In this document: positions 18,840 through 25,317 of the stretch, piece after piece
Numbering within the stretch: the stretch's first letter is position 1
Layout: each line of letters opens with the position of its first letter
Origin: Bacilli bacterium
Lineage (GTDB): Bacteria > Bacillota_I > Bacilli_A > RFN20 > CAG-826
DNA: 64,000 bases
Assembly (NCBI GenBank): GCA_045226015.1
Contig: JBGVBY010000021.1
Coordinates: 17,485 to 81,484 of the forward strand
Direction of reading: 5' to 3'
The notes under the pieces: generated by a model
The model's input: only the letters and a program-made list of their open reading frames with translations
What the model was told of the DNA's origin: nothing
Databases searched by the model: none
Position numbers and translations under genes: made by a program

Positions 18840-19916
18840 ATGGAAGAGAGCATGTTTCAAAGGCTAGAAATAGCGAGGAAAAGATTAGAAGAAATTGACC
18901 AAGAATTACTTGATGAAAACACTATGAAAGACATCAAGCATTTTCGTGATATCTCTAAAGAACGTGCGGTTCTTGAACCTCAAGTCGAAACATTTAATCT
19001 TTATATAAAATCTGAAAACGAGCTAAAAGAAGCTATTGAAATGAGTAATGATTCTGATCCTGATTTATCAGAAATGGGAAAAGAAGAAGCAAAAAGATTA
19101 ACTAAGCTTCTTGAAGAATTAGAAGAAAAATTAAGAGAACTTCTATTACCAAAAGATCCTAACGATGATAAAAACATCATTGTTGAAATTAGAGGCGCCG
19201 CTGGCGGAGACGAAGCAAACATCTTTGCGGGTGATTTGTTTAGAATGTATACAAGATACGCTGAAAACCAGGGTTGGAAAATTCAAATGATGGATCAATA
19301 CCCATCAGAAGCCGGAGGTTTCTCTCAAGTATCATTCATGATTAAAGGAAAAATGGTATACTCCAAACTCAAGTTTGAAAGTGGTGCACATCGTGTTCAA
19401 AGAGTTCCTAAAACTGAAGCAAGTGGAAGAATTCACACAAGTACAGCAACAGTTTTAGTAATGCCAGAAGCAGAAGAAATTGATGTCGAAATCAATCCAA
19501 ATGATTTACAAGTTGATACATATCACTCCCAAGGCGCTGGTGGACAAAACGTTAATAAGACTGAATCCGCTGTAAGAATCACACACATTCCAACTGGAAT
19601 TGTTGTAGCGTGCCAAACTGAAAAATCTCAAATTCAAAATAGAGAAATTGCTATGCAAATGTTGAGAGCAAAGATGTATTCCACAATGCTTGAAAAGCAA
19701 CAAGAAGAAATCGGTAATGAAAGAAGACTAAAAATCGGTACTGGAGAAAGAAGCGAAAAGATTCGTACCTATAACTATCCACAAAATAGAGTTACTGACC
19801 ATAGAATTGGATTTACAATTCAACAATTAGATAGAGTAATGGAAGGGGAGCTCGACTCAATCATCGAGGCACTTGTCCATTATGATCAATCACAAAAAAT
19901 TGCAGGTGAGAATTAA
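18840..19916 (+). CDS. prfA: Peptide chain release factor 1
   Basis: GGQ motif ([38 protein letters not shown]). Start is 18840 or 18852. Confidence 0.95.
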
Positions 19917-20776
19917 TGACTTACCGTGAAAAATATTTTGAACTAGAAAAAAATAAGAACAAATATTTAAACCTTAATGTGATAAAACTGCTATTAGAAG
20001 ACGATGGCGGTTTTTCTGATTTTTTTAACCTCATTAAACATTTTGATGAAGAAATTAAAGATGAAGAAAGACTAAATCAAAACATTGATAGAGTTAACTC
20101 TGGAGAACCAATTCAATATGTTCTTGGATATGCTTATTTCATCAATTCAAATTATAAAGTTAATAATGATGTTTTAATACCAAGGCAAGAGACAGAAGAG
20201 CTCGCTGTTGGAACACTAAAAATGATTGTTAAAATGTTTGGCAAAGAGCCAAATATTAAGATTGTAGATATAGGAACTGGTTCCGGAATTCTTGGAATAT
20301 ACCTTAAAGAATATTTCGACAAATCTACTGTGATTTGCACTGATATTAGTGAAAATTCCTTAAAAATTGCTAAAGAAAATTCTGAATTACATAATGTCAA
20401 AATTGATTTAAGACAAGGCGATATGTTAGAGCCAATTAAAGATGAATCAGATATTTCAGTAATCATCAGCAACCCTCCTTATATACTTAATAAAGAAACT
20501 GTAGATCCTCAAACACTTAAATACGAACCACATCTCGCATTATTTGCAAATCCAGTTGAAAAGTATTACCATAAAATTTTAAAAGCAATTGACCTAAACT
20601 TAATGTCAGACAGATTCTTGATTGCCTTTGAAATTGGAGAAAACATGGAAGAAGTGTTAACCCACTTATTAGAAAAAAACTATAAGGGAATTATGTATAA
20701 ATTTGAAAAAGATATTTACGGAAAAACAAGATTCTTATATATAGTTAAAGATGAAGGAATTTCATATGAAGCCTAA
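19916..20776 (+). CDS. prmC: Release factor glutamine N5-methyltransferase PrmC (HemK)
   Basis: VDIGTGSGILGI SAM motif and ISNPPY catalytic motif. Immediately after prfA. Confidence 0.9.
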   Translation: MTYREKYFELEKNKNKYLNLNVIKLLLEDDGGFSDFFNLIKHFDEEIKDEERLNQNIDRVNSGEPIQYVLGYAYFINSNYKVNNDVLIPRQETEELAVGTLKMIVKMFGKEPNIKIVDIGTGSGILGIYLKEYFDKSTVICTDISENSLKIAKENSELHNVKIDLRQGDMLEPIKDESDISVIISNPPYILNKETVDPQTLKYEPHLALFANPVEKYYHKILKAIDLNLMSDRFLIAFEIGENMEEVLTHLLEKNYKGIMYKFEKDIYGKTRFLYIVKDEGISYEA

Positions 20777-21362
20777 CTTTATAAAAGCAAAGGAAACATT
20801 AGATTCGTCTAAAGTAATTGCCTTCCCAACAGAAACAGTAATGGGCCTAGGCGTTTATTTTGATGATTTTAAAGCATATGAATTATTAAATTCCATTAAG
20901 AGAAGACCAGAAGACAAACCATACACCCTTATGTTAGGAGATACTAATAGTATTAAAAATTACGCATATGTAGATGATAGAGCAAAAAAGATCATTGACT
21001 CTTTTATGCCTGGCGAAATAACAATATTACTTCGTTCAAAGGAATCCGTTCCACATTATGTTACTCACGGAACAGGTATTATAGGGGTTAGAGTGCCGAA
21101 CAAATCTGATTTACTTGAGCTGCTTAACTTTGTTAAAAAACCTTTATTGGTACCGAGCGCTAATAGAAGTGGGGAAAAGCCTGCTATGAGTAGCGATGAA
21201 GTTAGAGAAATATTTAAAGATGAGGTATTTATAGCAATAGAAGGTAAAGCTATAGGAGGAGTACCATCAACTTTAGTTGACCTAACCGATAAAGAAGTTA
21301 AAATTTATAGAGAAGGCAATATAAAACTTAAAGATATTAAAAATGTCTTGGGAGAAAACTAA
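20766..21362 (+). CDS. tsaC: L-threonylcarbamoyladenylate synthase (YrdC/YwlC/Sua5 family)
   Basis: VIAFPTETVMGLGV...LLVPSANRSGEKPA YrdC-fold motifs. Conserved position after prmC. Confidence 0.85.
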   Translation: MKPNFIKAKETLDSSKVIAFPTETVMGLGVYFDDFKAYELLNSIKRRPEDKPYTLMLGDTNSIKNYAYVDDRAKKIIDSFMPGEITILLRSKESVPHYVTHGTGIIGVRVPNKSDLLELLNFVKKPLLVPSANRSGEKPAMSSDEVREIFKDEVFIAIEGKAIGGVPSTLVDLTDKEVKIYREGNIKLKDIKNVLGEN

Positions 21363-21363
21363 T

Positions 21364-21801
21364 ATGAAAATAGCAATCGGAAGCGATCACGGCGGTCTAG
21401 AATACAAAAACGCTATAAAAGAACACTTAAAAACAAAAGGATACACAGTAATTGATGTCGGCACTAATTCAAAAGATAGTTGCCACTATCCAATCTTTGG
21501 AGCCGAAGTAGCTAAAAAGGTATCTTCAAAAGAATGTGATTATGGTGTTGTTGTATGTACTTCTGGAGAAGGCATATCAATAGCAGCCAACAAAATTAAA
21601 GGTGTTAGATGCGGCATTGCTTATAACGATGATGTCGCTAGACTAATGAGACAACATAATAACGCCAATGTCATCTCCTTTGGACAAGCATTCATGTCTT
21701 TGGAAGATGTATTAAAACGAGTTGATATCTTCTTAAATACAGAGTTTGAAGGCGGAAGACATCAAACAAGAGTTGATCTTATCAGCGATTTAGAAAAATA
21801 A
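21364..21801 (+). CDS. rpiB: Ribose-5-phosphate isomerase B (RpiB/LacAB family)
   Basis: MKIAIGSDHGGLEYKNAIKEHLKTKGY...CGTSGEGISIAANK. The start ATG at 21364 has a GGAGA RBS; the track ORF starts 21 nt further upstream. Confidence 0.9.
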   Translation: MKIAIGSDHGGLEYKNAIKEHLKTKGYTVIDVGTNSKDSCHYPIFGAEVAKKVSSKECDYGVVVCTSGEGISIAANKIKGVRCGIAYNDDVARLMRQHNNANVISFGQAFMSLEDVLKRVDIFLNTEFEGGRHQTRVDLISDLEK

Positions 21802-21822
21802 TTAAGTTTTTAAAACTTAAAT

Positions 21823-21853
21823 AGTCCCAACTGGGACTTTTTTTATTTTTTTT
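21823..21853 (+). terminator. Rho-independent terminator after rpiB
   Basis: AGTCCCaactGGGACT stem followed by TTTTTTTATTTTTTTT. Preceded by a second perfect palindrome TTAAGTTTTTAAAACTTAA. Confidence 0.85.
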
Positions 21854-21879
21854 GAATAAAAAATCGAATTTTCTCACTA

Positions 21880-22175
21880 TTTAAATAGTAAGGAGATGTT
21901 TTAAACATTTGCTACAAAACAAACAGGAGGAAACATGATAAAAAGAAACCGAAACCGAAAAGCAATATTTGAAAGCAGATGTAAAAAGCCTTTATTGAAA
22001 GGAAAATTTTACCGAGTGTTAGACTCTACTAACAAGAATCATTCAAAAATAATAAATAAAAAATGAGCAAAAGAATTATCAGGCAGACTTATAGAGAACA
22101 ATAAAAAGGAATAGATAGTTTGGTTTTTGCCGTATGTGGTTCCTCAAAAACACGAAATCCATAACAAAAAGGAGA
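21880..22175 (+). pseudogene. Orphan degenerate copy A of the comFA 5' end (RBS + zinc-finger region + Walker-A region)
   Basis: Collinear nucleotide similarity to 23510-23810. ...taaggagatgtt... corresponds to aaaggagatgtt. agcagatgtaaaaagcctttattgaaagg corresponds to cgtagatgtatttcatttaaaggcg. gaattatcaggcagacttatagagaacaataaaaagg corresponds to gaattatcagacaagctagttgagaactataaaaaagg. atagatagtttggtttttgccgtatgtggttcc (IDSLVFAVCGS) corresponds to the comFA Walker A. Frame is broken by stops. The 44-aa ORF 21936-22070 is part of this fragment. Confidence 0.75.
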
Positions 22176-22179
22176 AAAT

Positions 22180-22521
22180 ATGAAAGATAAATTTAGATAC
22201 AACAAGAAAAGAAAACACTATTCATACATTTTTAAAATTAAAAATGGTTATTGCTCTAACATCTTACTTACAACCCAAACTGAATCTATTCATAAAAAAC
22301 ATGGACAAACAAAAATAGTGAGGAACATCAAATTGTATAGACATCCTAACTCTAGGAAAACTAGTGTAATCGTTTTTATTTATAATCACCCACCATACAT
22401 AGATGCAAAAGAGTCTTTTGATGATAAAAGGTTAGATTGGAAATGGGATATAAATGATAAACGCAATGTTAAGAGGCTTAAGAATTACAAGAAGTACAAA
22501 AAATATTTTGAAAAGAAATAA
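22180..22521 (+). CDS. Small basic hypothetical protein X1 (113 aa, Lys-rich C-terminus), paralog of X2
   Basis: AAAAGGAG RBS. Shares its start region (aaatccataacaaaaaggagRaaatATGAAA) and weak protein similarity with X2. No recognisable domain. Confidence 0.45.
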   Translation: MKDKFRYNKKRKHYSYIFKIKNGYCSNILLTTQTESIHKKHGQTKIVRNIKLYRHPNSRKTSVIVFIYNHPPYIDAKESFDDKRLDWKWDINDKRNVKRLKNYKKYKKYFEKK

Positions 22522-22584
22522 AAAAATCGGTGATGAACTCCAGCTAACGCCAGGTATATCTAACCGACATGAATATTTAATCAC

Positions 22585-22692
22585 ATGAAAGGTGGCGACG
22601 CAATATAGAAAACTATAAGAAGGGGGTAGACAGTTTAGTTTTTGTAGTGTGTGGTTCCCCAAAGACACTAAATCCATAACAAAAAGGAGGAA
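22585..22692 (+). pseudogene. Orphan degenerate copy B of the comFA 5' end (internally deleted)
   Basis: aaaggtggcgacgcaatatagaaaactataagaagggggtagacagtttagtttttgtagtgtgtggttcc matches comFA 23530-23560 joined to 23755-23795; the zinc-finger segment is deleted. Encodes ..VDSLVFVVCGS.. out of context. Confidence 0.7.
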
Positions 22693-22694
22693 AT

Positions 22695-23012
22695 ATGAAA
22701 AAGTTTAGAAGACATTTTAGGATTTATTTCAAAAACAACCATCCTGCATATATTGTTGATGAAGAAGGAAATACCTACGTATTTCATAGAGTAACCCATT
22801 CAAAAACATCAGGAGGTAGAAAGAACTGGATAATTAAAAAGAACCCCATCAAAGGTGATAATAAAACGATGAATATTGTTAAAAAAGAAGAAAGAGACAA
22901 AAAAGCCAGATTCAGTATGTTTGAAATTGAATTAAAAAATGGTGTAGATGTCTCATATCCAGACATAAAACTGACAAGGGAACTGTTAAAGAAAAAGAAA
23001 AACAAGGGCTAG
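22695..23012 (+). CDS. Small basic hypothetical protein X2 (105 aa), paralog of X1
   Basis: AAAAGGAGG RBS. MKKFRRHFRIYFKNNHPAYIVDEEGNTYVFHRVTHSKTSGG.. No recognisable domain. Lys-rich C-terminal tail. Confidence 0.45.
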   Translation: MKKFRRHFRIYFKNNHPAYIVDEEGNTYVFHRVTHSKTSGGRKNWIIKKNPIKGDNKTMNIVKKEERDKKARFSMFEIELKNGVDVSYPDIKLTRELLKKKKNKG

Positions 23013-23539
23013 CCTTGTTATTAGAGTTAAATATCTTTGCTTTTCATAACTCTATTCTTGAAAACCAAGTCGCAATATGCCAAGCATACCCTTGCTTGAC
23101 GCAAAGCACATATTACTTTTCACCAATTACATAGGGGTGATTTTGATGAACTGGACTCCTTTGACACACCTGTTATTTGCTGAAGGTGGAACTCTGTGGT
23201 CATTAGCCACTAGTTGCCTATTTCGATCGTGTCTGGTATCCGGAATTACGCATACAAGTCCTAACTTTGCACCCGGTAAATTATTCAGGGAGGTTTAGAC
23301 CATTGAATCAACGATTCATAATTGGCTGTTTAATTGAGTTTTAATCAAAACTAAGTATCAGCTTCCTTAGTACAGCTCAATTAATATAACAAACGTTTGA
23401 TAAAAATGAAACAAGAAATAAAAAAGTCCATTAAGGACTTAGTGCATCGGGCAGATCGAGCTGCCAATTGGTGCGCGGTTGTCTGAGCCTATTCAGCTCT
23501 GCGTACAACTTGTGAATATATTAAATCAAAAGAAAGGAG

Positions 23540-24704
23540 ATGTTGCAATATAGAAACTTATAAATGTCCTGTTTGTGGCAATACAGATATTCATTCGATC
23601 GGAACGCTCAACGGCAAGCCTTATTGTCGTAGATGTATTTCATTTAAAGGCGAAGAGGTAGAACACAAACAATCTTATCCAAAGAAAGCACCTATACATC
23701 TTGAATATGAGTTATCACCTGAACAGAAAGAATTATCAGACAAGCTAGTTGAGAACTATAAAAAAGGTATAGATAGTTTAGTTTTTGCGGTGTGTGGTTC
23801 AGGAAAGACAGAGATAATACTCAAAGTCGTTCAATATGTACTTAATTGTGGAGAAAAAGTTGCGTTTGCGCTTCCAAGAAGAGATGTATGCATAGAAATA
23901 AATAATAGGTTAAAAGAAATTTTTATTAAAAATACAATTGCATGTGTATATGGAGGTCATACTAAAAGAAAAATTGCCGATATCGTTGTTTTAACAACAC
24001 ACCAATTATACCGTTATAAACGTTACTTCAATTTAATAATCTTAGATGAGATAGATGCGTTCCCTTTTAAAGATGATCCAGTATTAAATTCTATGTTTTT
24101 TGGAGCTTTAAACGGTCATTATATTATGATGAGTGCCACTCCTCCAAAAGAATTAATTAATTACTTTTCAAAAGAAGGAAAAGACATATTAAAACTAGAC
24201 ATTAGATTTCATAGACATCCTTTACCAGTCCCAAATATTAGATCAAATAATACTATCTTCTTATTTCTTATTCTATTAAAGGAATTAAGAAGATTTATCA
24301 AAGAGAAAAAACCAGTATTTATCTTTGCTCCAACAATAGAAGAATGTGAGAAATTGTATCGATATATATCACTATTTATCAGAGGAGGAAATTATGTACA
24401 TTCAAAACGAATTAATAGATCTGAAATCATAAATTCATTTAGACTTGGAGCATACAAATATTTAGTTACTACATCAGTATTAGAAAGGGGCGTAACAGTC
24501 AGAAATTTACAGGTAATTATCCACAAAAGTGACAGTTTTGTCTATGATTCTGGTACTTTGGTGCAAATTTCAGGAAGAGTGGGAAGAAAGAAAGATGCAC
24601 CAGAAGGAGAAGTAATTTTTCTAGCAAACAAAATAACAAAGGAGATGAGAGATGCAGTTAGTGAAATTGAAGACAAAAACAAATCATTGCAAGATGTGTT
24701 TTAA
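23540..24704 (+). CDS. comFA: Competence helicase ComFA (DEAD/DEAH-box, N-terminal zinc finger); start codon unresolved
   Basis: Conserved frame 23487-24704 encodes ..ETYKCPVCGNTDIH...GKPYCRRCISF (zinc finger), VFAVCGSGKTE (motif I), ILDEIDAFP (motif II, DEID) and TTSVLERGVT...QISGRVGR (motif VI). This frame has no in-frame ATG/GTG/TTG before GTG 23790. The ATG at 23540 (RBS AAAGGAG) is in the -1 frame and stops after 7 codons. Confidence 0.7.
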
Positions 24705-25317
24705 AGAGATAAATGACAACTCTTTTTACAACATAATTCACAAAGATAATTTACTATGTGAATCGTGTTTTTCAACTCTAAAGGCGAGGTTTATAAAATT
24801 CAAAATCAACAATATAGAAGCATTATCAATTTATGAATATGATGAAACAATCAAGAAACTGATTTATACATTCAAGGGATGTTACGACTATGAGTTAAAA
24901 GACATGTTCTTAAATCGATATAAAACATATCTAAAACTTAAATATTGGGGATATAGTCTAGTTACTATTCCTTCTAGTGATGTAGACGATCAAAAAAGAG
25001 GGTTCAATCACGTTAAAGAAATGTTCTCATTGCTTAAAATGAACAGACTAGAAGTATTAGAAAAATGTTCGCGGGAAAAACAATCATCAAAATGCAGTAA
25101 AGATAGGTTAAAAATTGATGAGATATTAATCTCTAAAAATATCGAACAAGTTAAAAATAAGAAAATCCTAATTGTAGATGATATTTATACGACTGGGGCA
25201 ACAATGTTTAAAGCAATACAACTAATAAAAAAGGGGTGTCCTAAAAAGATTAAGGTCTTAGTGGTAGCAAAGACTATTGAACTAGACAAACGAAATAACA
25301 AAAATGAACGTTCCTAA
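24652..25317 (+). CDS. comFC: ComFC (competence protein, phosphoribosyltransferase fold with N-terminal zinc finger)
   Basis: CKMCFKEI...CESCF zinc ribbon. PRTase motif KILIVDDIYTTGATM. Overlaps the comFA 3' end. Confidence 0.85.
   Translation: MQLVKLKTKTNHCKMCFKEINDNSFYNIIHKDNLLCESCFSTLKARFIKFKINNIEALSIYEYDETIKKLIYTFKGCYDYELKDMFLNRYKTYLKLKYWGYSLVTIPSSDVDDQKRGFNHVKEMFSLLKMNRLEVLEKCSREKQSSKCSKDRLKIDEILISKNIEQVKNKKILIVDDIYTTGATMFKAIQLIKKGCPKKIKVLVVAKTIELDKRNNKNERS

Follow-up and report, generated by a model that had tools for sequence, protein, structure and literature searches.

Single-gene cassettes stacked in the 5′ end of comFA in uncultured ruminant-gut Bacilli, probably moved by homologous recombination

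The competence gene comFA of a Bacilli bacterium (GTDB lineage Bacteria; Bacillota_I; Bacilli_A; RFN20; CAG-826) is preceded by an array of small gene cassettes that carry copies of the gene's own 5′ end. We analysed this array in a 64,000-nucleotide stretch of DNA, the window (GenBank assembly GCA_045226015.1, contig JBGVBY010000021.1, positions 17,485 to 81,484 of the forward strand), a low-GC chromosome segment (34.8%). Its genes follow the order prfA-prmC-sua5-rpiB, then the array, then comFA-comFC-secA. Identification of comFA rests on the Pfam domains DEAD/ResIII and Helicase_C, on CxxC...CxxC zinc-finger codons and on comFC downstream. The nearest public relatives are ruminant-gut metagenome-assembled genomes (MAGs) labelled 'Bacilli bacterium' or 'uncultured Erysipelotrichaceae'. 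The features of the locus are collected in Table 1.

We call c5′ the segment of about 290 nt that comprises the Shine-Dalgarno sequence (SD) and codons 1-85 of comFA and ends in the Walker-A codons. Its last 60-90 nt are present three times in the window: once in comFA and twice upstream, in orphan copies A and B, each adjoining a junction of ~35 nt and a small basic ORF. This recurrence, proposed in the original prediction, is found alike by repeat search, blastn and nhmmer. Repeat family D1 consists of co-linear, co-oriented 81-nt copies at 22105, 22620 and 23763. In blastn, copy A matches copy B over 109 nt (82.6%, E 2e-24) and the intact comFA over 74 nt (83.8%, E 9e-16), and copy B matches the intact gene over 60 nt (81.7%, E 2e-10); the likeness therefore holds in a proper alignment. 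An nhmmer profile built from 16 comFA 5′ copies, all from other genomes, matches 22065-22151 (E 1.6e-15), 22606-22666 (E 9e-14) and the c5′ in use (E 2e-83). Copy B also retains a piece of the SD and start region (22573-22618 against 23518-23563, 78%, E 2e-4) joined to the Walker-A end, which bears out the internal deletion that had been ascribed to it. Both orphans end in ...TGTGGTTC and continue as NYCAAARACACKAAATCCATAACAAAAAGGAGRAAATATGAAA, the same ~35 nt leading into ORFs X1 and X2, respectively.

Copy A is shorter than the full-length copy it had been taken for. Only 22065-22151 is comFA-like; the alignment of 21901-22069 with 23545-23726 scores at the level of shuffled sequence (z = 0.24), and the profile gives it no coverage. 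The 17-nt match at 21884-21900, previously read as the comFA ribosome-binding site of copy A, sits within a promoter/SD-hairpin motif of stand-alone X genes. The whole of 21850-22066 consists of a remnant of this motif and a decayed third cassette. Repeat family D2, with copies at 21915, 22160 and 22675 (79-86% identity), represents the cassette left end with its SD, and the ORF at 21935-22066 resembles the X4 genes of loci L014 and L038 (tblastn, KFYRVLD..., 10/19 identical, E 0.001 in a very small search space). We read the window as carrying three cassettes: X0, decayed; X1; and X2, accompanied by two putative RNA genes, RNAa and RNAb.

Table 1. Features of the comFA cassette array in the window (positions of the 64,000-nucleotide stretch)
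Feature	Position	Strand	Basis and remarks
rpiB terminator hairpin	21823..21838	+	Array's left limit; terminator scan, sequence
Promoter/SD-sequestering hairpin remnant (AAAAATCGAATTTTCTCACTATTTAAATAGTAAGGAG), then 2-codon stub ATGTTTTAA	21850..21905	+	Comparison with upstream regions of stand-alone X genes in L021-L024, L029, L030 and with L015/L044
Degenerate third left end/SD copy (CAAAACAAACAGGAGGAAAC)	21915..21934	+	Repeat family D2 (copy spans 21915-21942)
X0, truncated 43-aa remnant of an X4-type gene	21935..22066	+	ORF list; tblastn with X4 of L014, frame same as ATG
Orphan fragment A, last ~80 nt (profile positions 201 on), frameshifted, ends ...TGTGGTTC	22065..22142	+	nhmmer, blastn, junctions
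X1 cassette left end (CTCAAAAACACGAAATCCATAACAAAAAGGAGAAAAT); gives the orphan's stop codon and the X1 SD	22143..22179	+	Alignment of 13 other and 2 window junctions
X1, 113-aa basic protein, remote member of the X2/MazF-fold superfamily	22180..22521	+	33 homologues; hhalign 96%
X1 3′ tail hairpin module (AATCGGTGATGAACTCCAGC...CCAGGTATATCTAACCGA...TATTTAATCA)	22522..22590	.	blastn to L007 (89%), L011 (85%)
Orphan fragment B, 22573-22618 joined to last ~55 nt (22606-22657), deletion at GAAAACTATAA, ends ...TGTGGTTC	22573..22657	+	Repeat families D3, D1; blastn; nhmmer
X2 cassette left end (CCCAAAGACACTAAATCCATAACAAAAAGGAGGAAAT)	22658..22694	+	Junction alignment
X2, 105-aa basic protein, short form, predicted MazF/CcdB-like fold	22695..23012	+	
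RNAa (putative), convergent with X2, contains cow-rumen-1	23001..23400	-	Rfam; terminator 23019-23001 with T-run; 5′ limit inferred from extended -10-like TGTTATATT
RNAb (putative), sRNA-like, ~95 nt, three hairpins, terminator 23440-23424	23424..23520	-	>90% identical in L007, L028, L038, L048; extended -10-like TGATTTAAT at 5′ side
c5′ now in use: SD AAAGGAG 23534-23540, ATA 23550, zinc-finger codons, ends ...GTGTGTGGTTC	23522..23800	+	nhmmer, identity break, start alleles
comFA (DEAD/ResIII helicase and Helicase_C); body from 23801 read as resident, first ~85 codons as cassette-derived	23550..24704	+	Pfam, mosaic analysis
comFC (phosphoribosyltransferase-like), downstream operon partner	24652..25317	+	Pfam; synteny in L001, L004, L013-L048

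We fetched further rumen MAG and metagenome loci (L001-L048) through homologues of the X genes. X genes lie immediately upstream of comFA in 17 of them (L001, L004, L013-L018, L025, L027, L028, L032, L036, L038, L040, L044, L048), and the flanks prfA-prmC-sua5-rpiB and comFC-secA-prfB-uvrB are present in every such locus. Orphan c5′ copies, two or more cassettes, or both occur in 12 of the 17 (L013-L018, L025, L028, L038, L040, L044, L048); the other five (L001, L004, L027, L032, L036) have X2 upstream of comFA and no orphan tabulated. Stacked orphan copies are also carried by the short contigs L035 and L037. The architecture recurs across a clade of uncultured ruminant-gut Bacilli.

The insertion point lies just after the Walker-A codons, where the original prediction had placed it. 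Thirteen orphan junctions in nine other loci and the two in the window all read ...TGYGGWTC/NCCAAARAC... (slash at the junction) and are followed by six cargo types in the layout ...TGYGGWTC/NCCAAARACRCKAAAWMCATAAYA..GGAG..ATG-cargo. Functional comFA genes always read ...GGWTC/WGGNAARACNGAR, encoding GSGKTE. The left end of the cassette (~35 nt) turns GSGKT into GSPKT, stops the orphaned frame and supplies an SD. Every cassette lies between c5′ repeats, the downstream one of which is in frame with the comFA body: these are target-derived direct repeats, and the target is restored. Each inserted unit brings a replacement comFA 5′ end and orphans the previous one, as had been predicted; the junctions and the mosaic ComFA proteins described below agree on this.

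The six cargo types are X1, X2, X3, X4, X5 and a YhcG nuclease. X2 comes in two lengths: 100-112 aa, the short form, and 123-157 aa, the long form, which overlaps the comFA start. The YhcG cargo is a 330-aa YhcG/DUF1016 PD-(D/E)xK nuclease according to Pfam and matches the PADLOC candidate system PDC-S02. Its genes, some of them truncated, occupy the cassette slot in L015 (5062-6054), L018 (1619-1957 and 2021-2994) and L028 (3622-3945); the truncated YhcG at 1619-1957 of L018 is fused in frame to the comFA Walker-A/left-end junction.

Co-oriented single-gene cassettes at one site, varying among genomes, are found in the window and the 12 loci. Arrays contain one to four cassettes, and in the loci examined the units always measure 0.45-1.3 kb and hold one cargo gene, with many ORFs intact. 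This bears on the origin first proposed for them, namely two large integrase-bearing elements, prophage-like or resembling integrative and conjugative elements, inserted successively and decayed to about 0.5 kb. Orphaned gene ends and tandem accretion are typical of integrase-driven islands, and the window orphans do carry deletions; we nevertheless consider this origin very improbable. Between the c5′ copies of the 12 other loci there are only single small genes, with never a larger element or integrase remnant, the same cargo also occurs as stand-alone chromosomal genes, and a blastn search of the whole cassette region against phages and plasmids gave no match. The small single-gene format is native to the units in every locus.

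The arrays are polymorphic. Among genomes with a PrfA 90-93% identical to that of the window, the arrays are not alike; this is the element-like variation that the original prediction called for. Near-identical X4 cassettes (about 93% at the amino-acid level) stand beside different comFA bodies in L014 and L038. An apparent cassette polymorphism between L040 and L042 was rejected: the DNA is identical and only the gene call differs.

The mosaic structure of ComFA mirrors that of the arrays. Residues 1-87 are 83-92% identical between the window and L015, L017 and L018, against about 51% for residues 88-384. At the DNA level, identity to the same three loci is 70-93% up to the bin that begins at 23811, where it drops to 36-60%. 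In L001, L004, L027 and L016, by comparison, the N-terminal part is 53-62% and the body 51-54% identical to the window. An N-terminal part so much more alike than the body means that the 5′ segment moves horizontally. The N-terminal variants of ComFA (MENHNSF..., MS(T/D)..., (ATA)ETYK...) follow the upstream cargo gene, in orphan copies and in copies in use.

These data argue against purely local evolution, in which an ancestral rpiB-X-comFA operon underwent tandem duplications of X plus c5′ that diverged in place, with no horizontal movement. Such a history would suit the grouping of X1-X5 in one superfamily, the apparently ancestral position of X2 directly upstream of comFA (with a stand-alone-type promoter in L001, L004, L027 and L044) and the greater likeness of the c5′ middles within a genome. 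It does not suit the bimodal N-terminal identity (83-92% versus 53-62%) at equal divergence of the bodies (about 51%), a YhcG cargo unrelated to the X genes, cassette order and content that differ among genomes with 90-93% identical PrfA, or the X4 cassettes shared by L014 and L038. We regard it as improbable.

Where within c5′ the exchanges occurred was examined by a linkage test on 26 copies from 15 genomes, aligned to the profile and compared between genomes only, with permutation p values. The first 60 nt go with the cargo upstream (78.7 vs 59.2% identity, p = 0.0005), and the last 37 nt of orphan copies with the cargo downstream (88.2 vs 82.0%, p = 0.0015). The middle ~190 nt show no such association, but have greater likeness within a genome (78-79% vs 65-73%). 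The position of the junction does not vary, yet cargo linkage is confined to at most 60 nt at either end of c5′. Linkage lost inward from both ends points to crossovers or gene conversion inside the repeat, not to one fixed crossover.

We therefore favour, as the probable explanation, an array of gene cassettes that lie within the 5′ end of comFA and are moved mainly by homologous recombination of the RecA type, or by gene conversion, inside the ~290-nt c5′, with no integrase of their own; that the mover is host recombination rather than an element-encoded integrase we infer from the pattern of linkage and from the searches below. A cassette consists of the left end, one cargo gene, in some cases putative minus-strand small RNA genes (RNAa, RNAb), and a replacement c5′. 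Reciprocal recombination between the cassette's c5′ and the resident one would insert it: the incoming c5′ would end up fused in frame to the resident comFA body, and the previous c5′ would stay upstream, joined to the left end. Repeated events would stack cassettes, the newest beside comFA, and older orphans would then undergo internal deletions. The exchanges could take place by Campbell-type insertion of excised circles, by unequal crossing-over or with incoming homologous DNA, possibly through natural transformation.

Searches for a recombinase were negative. In L040, L044 and L048, the DNA up to about 8 kb from the arrays contains no Phage_integrase or recombinase domain of Pfam. None of the ten window ORFs tested, all in its outer parts, has one either; the window ORFs adjacent to the array were identified only by synteny with those three loci. 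The ORFs between c5′ copies (Pfam, PHROGs, NCBIfam) include none, being only X genes or YhcG. The junction pattern has 0 matches in the viral collection searched and occurs in only 4 short contigs of the JGI metagenomes. Inspection of the junction revealed no convincing likeness to the consensus of a dif/Xer-like site or of an integron attC-like core. A co-variation of the left and right junction arms seen in copy B was not upheld across the other junctions.

A trans-acting recombinase is nonetheless a serious rival, because the junction is invariant, the left end is kept before unrelated cargo and this left end resembles comFA 3′ of the site. The cassettes would then be non-autonomous site-specific elements, in the manner of integron cassettes, cis-mobilisable elements (CIMEs) or Xer-dependent modules, mobilised by an unlinked recombinase, with the c5′ end and left end as an attP-like site and the Walker-A region as attB. 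Invariance extends to the nucleotide in the 13 other and 2 window junctions, the ~35-nt left end is conserved before unrelated cargo, and its likeness to comFA (AAAGACACGAAAT vs AAAACAGAAAT) is of the kind that attP and attB cores often have; the junction is a partial palindrome around GGATCC, and identity breaks sharply at the site. We judge this rival rather unlikely, since no candidate recombinase lies near the arrays searched (L040, L044, L048 and the window ORFs), the loss of cargo linkage within 60 nt of the c5′ ends needs added gene conversion and, on inspection, left and right arm variants do not co-vary.

Several points weigh against homologous recombination as the mover. Retention of the left end before unrelated cargo (X genes, YhcG) and the partial dyad symmetry of the junction around GGATCC would both fit a recognition site for a protein, and site-specific insertion followed by gene conversion could also have left the middle of c5′ unlinked. 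By itself, homologous recombination accounts neither for the entry of cargo between left end and c5′ nor for the founding duplication, which the trans-recombinase model does not explain either. Neither a circular form nor an empty site nor an excision product was seen; searches with the window's own RpiB and ComFC led to no contigs other than ones identical to the window, and hence to no empty site at strain level. The copies in the linkage test are not phylogenetically independent, and all data are MAG or metagenome assemblies.

This last point raises the question of an assembly artefact, in which the assembler would have concatenated strain variants of the comFA 5′ end. Repeats can confuse assemblers, and Logan contigs break inside the array. 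An artefact is hardly credible, however: the copies are only about 82% identical and have different genes between them, the architecture is present in at least 12 assemblies from different studies and assemblers, and an independent Logan assembly (SRR25030108) reproduces window positions 19634-22742 at 100%, including rpiB, both orphans, X1 and the start of X2.

Pieces of the array also turn up in other arrangements. More than 100 protein clusters (P0252-P0371) are intact ORFs of ~90-93 aa that represent orphaned N-terminal zinc-finger fragments of ComFA, ending in ...CGSPKT(R/L)K before the stop codon. They sit just upstream of X genes in an antitoxin-toxin-like layout (for example L014 3707-3985, L044 8001-8282 and L048 8001-8282). 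At 3590-4288 of L018, a 1-nt deletion at the junction fuses such a fragment in frame to X2, giving a chimeric ORF of 232 aa. In L003 (6001-6713), a module of X2, RNAa, spacer and the first ~45 nt of c5′ (to ATATAGAAAACTA) lies between hypA and a convergent ATP_bind_3 gene, with a stand-alone-type promoter on its left. This copy is evidence that pieces of cassettes also reach other sites through illegitimate events.

The original prediction described comFA as intact. Its 384-codon frame is, being open from 23526, but no ATG, GTG or TTG occurs before 23790, and an ATA stands 10 nt after the SD, at 23550, where orthologues (L004, L017o, L028o) have ATG. The ATA allele is also found in the functional copies of L013 (about 4637) and L016 (about 5055) and in several orphans, and L044 (about 8837) has ATC. 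Because the frame is otherwise intact, weak non-AUG initiation is likelier than a pseudogene, with an uncertain level of expression. It is possible that the cassette-borne 5′ end tunes comFA expression, in this case downwards. An out-of-frame ATG lies 7-10 nt upstream of the comFA start position; a 1-nt deletion in the L014 orphan brings that ATG into frame.

Between X2 and comFA lies what had been described as a unique GC-richer segment of 480 bp. It is richer in GC (38.4% at 23013-23520 vs 29.6% at 21802-23012); unique it is not, being conserved in other genomes and containing an Rfam family. The cow-rumen-1 RNA motif (RF02946) is found at 23217-23279 on the minus strand with 56.3 bits, against a gathering score of 53.4. 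The gathering score is also reached in L003, L012 and L026; L001 and L004 fall just below it. All terminator-like sites of the segment (23019-23001 and 23440-23424) belong to the minus strand, so that it most likely codes for two minus-strand RNAs, RNAa and RNAb.

The terminator of RNAa overlaps the X2 stop codon. An RNAa region of 250-390 nt lies downstream of short-form X2 genes in L001 (6318-6640), L003 (6325-6585), L004 (6328-6625), L012 (530-840), L015 (4328-4630), L018 (4310-4610) and L026 (4325-4480). It is always convergent to the short-form gene, and none was seen beside long-form X2 in the long-form loci examined. The 61-nt cow-rumen-1 motif is the core of this larger RNA-like region, which has short variants of about 250 nt and long ones with an insertion of ~55 nt. 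RNAb is located at 5713-5815 in L007, 3351-3443 in L028, 7210-7312 in L048 and about 1500-1598 in L038. Its identity between genomes exceeds 90%, although the flanking genes have diverged much further, and it occurs in comFA arrays and, in L007, in an unrelated rpsL-rpoC locus. There, a TATATTAAATCAAA motif flanks it on both sides; in our own reading this recurring motif may be the extended -10-like TGATTTAAT that precedes the RNAs on the minus strand. RNAalifold on 8 RNAa and 5 RNAb sequences found covariation too sparse to prove structure. A sequence in RNAa, GGUGUGUCAAAGG, resembles the two junction halves, which prompted the idea of a guide or bridge RNA; we rejected it, as this resemblance does not extend to the long RNAa variants and, in the consensus fold, the segment is engaged in internal pairing.

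X2 has more than 545 homologous clusters and X1 has 33. An exhaustive profile search yielded 98 representatives, mostly basic proteins of ~100 aa with the motif HFR.Y.K..HPA.I..E....Y.F...THS....N...NP...D..PMYI.K...D.K..F. The original prediction took X1 and X2 for paralogues; pairwise BLASTP and narrow profile comparison show no similarity between them, and the relationship emerges only with the broad X2 family profile (hhalign probability 96%, E 3e-9). X3 is placed at 94%, and X5 and X4 weakly (51% and 13%), so that X1 and X3 probably belong to the X2 superfamily. X1-X5 and distant relatives have no family match in Pfam, NCBIfam, PADLOC or PHROGs, and a sequence search of the PDB with X proteins retrieved no relatives. 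An AlphaFold2 model of X2, calculated from the alignment of 98 representatives, has a pLDDT of 89.6 and a pTM of 0.80. Its top 50 Foldseek matches are mostly MazF-family toxins; CcdB and Kid are matched as well, and CptN ranks 38th. X2 is thus predicted to be a MazF/CcdB-fold protein, with an SH3-like barrel.

No protein antitoxin gene lies beside the X genes: the sole upstream ORF is the orphan ComFA-N fragment, and the stand-alone X genes lack any. A MazF-fold protein with a dedicated, convergent and structured RNA suggests that short-form X2 and RNAa may form an RNA-antitoxin-like pair. A search of 21700-23900 with TRF found no tandem short-repeat array of the type III antitoxin kind.

The cargo genes that also occur as stand-alone chromosomal genes have a conserved promoter/SD hairpin. 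In L019-L024, L029-L031, L007, L008 and L011 they share an upstream motif (TTTCGGACAAAAATCAAAAAATCCCCCTATTAATTAATAGGAGGGTTTTTAATG) with a hairpin that sequesters the SD; its remnant in the window is listed in Table 1. The motif could be a promoter combined with a translational control element. A hairpin module of ~65 nt directly follows the X1 stop codon in the comFA array of the window and at unrelated loci (L007 5343-5405; L011 5335-5400), and may act as a terminator in both directions or be a small RNA of the minus strand.

If homologous recombination is indeed the mover, integron-like arrays can be built without an adjacent integrase, inside a conserved gene that is repaired at each insertion. 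The target is the DNA-uptake motor, which ties cassette traffic to natural transformation and to the conflict between mobile DNA and competence, and the ATA and ATC start alleles raise the possibility that cassette-borne 5′ ends tune the gene. A widespread, unannotated family of small basic proteins gains a predicted MazF/CcdB-like fold, the orphan Rfam motif cow-rumen-1 gains a genomic partner and a possible functional context with a testable role, and more than 100 database 'genes' of about 92 aa are flagged as orphaned ComFA N-terminal fragments. Taken to its full extent, which we propose only tentatively, the system would be a new kind of mobile cassette that needs no dedicated integrase: a portable, gene-restoring c5′ of ~290 nt would let host recombination gain, lose and shuffle cassettes, which would spread among distant rumen Bacilli through the uptake machinery whose gene they occupy, their main cargo being a new solitary branch of the MazF fold with a short form paired with cow-rumen-1 RNA as an RNA-antitoxin-like pair.

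A search of the literature for comFA integration sites, hotspots and cow-rumen-1 brought up nothing pertinent, and no description of cassettes targeting comFA or of the X protein family was found in the searchable literature. Site-restricted gene-cassette arrays are a known kind; the principle of mobilisation, in which a homology repeat restores the gene and no dedicated integrase takes part, stands a real chance of being new. As in integrons, the cassettes are small, mostly of one gene, promoterless and co-oriented at one fixed site with the newest at the functional end, toxin-type cargo is common and array content differs between related genomes. Unlike in integrons, no intI tyrosine recombinase gene is adjacent to the comFA array in the loci and ORFs searched, and the repeat is a 290-nt coding segment with a ~35-nt left end instead of an attC hairpin (RYYYAAC/GTTRRRY), with no GTTRRRY core at the junctions. 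Moreover, the site lies within an ORF and is rebuilt by each cassette, and linkage points to homologous crossovers.

Some integrative elements restore the end of the gene they target; these, and integrase-less CIMEs, undergo tandem accretion at tRNA genes, fda, comK and similar sites. The comFA cassettes resemble them in the substitute gene end, the displaced partial copy, the tandem arrays and the choice of a competence gene as target. They differ in being units of 0.45-1.3 kb with a single cargo and no integrase or remnant in the loci seen; it is the 5′ end (SD and 85 codons) that is replaced and not a short 3′ end, and the repeat far exceeds the usual att core.

Orphan toxin/immunity modules lie downstream of rhs and cdiA genes. 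In these systems, as at comFA, an incoming module displaces the previous gene end, which is left as a stub-bearing orphan, and repeats mediate homologous recombination. Recombination between a main rhs gene and its orphan has been described (PMC3967940). The geometry at comFA is mirrored, with 5′ ends displaced upstream; the displaced part is not a variable functional domain, the cargo is a separate gene and not a gene tip, and the host gene encodes a DNA-uptake ATPase.

With the MazF, PemK, Kid and CcdB toxins, X2 shares the predicted fold, though neither a sequence-level family match nor a protein antitoxin gene. In type III toxin-antitoxin systems (ToxN, CptN, AbiQ) the RNA is an upstream tandem-repeat array; here it is single, downstream and convergent, and long-form and stand-alone X genes are without an RNA partner. 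With cow-rumen-1 (RF02946), finally, the RNA of the comFA array shares a score above the gathering threshold and a habitat, the cow rumen; here the motif is the 61-nt core of a region of 250-390 nt.

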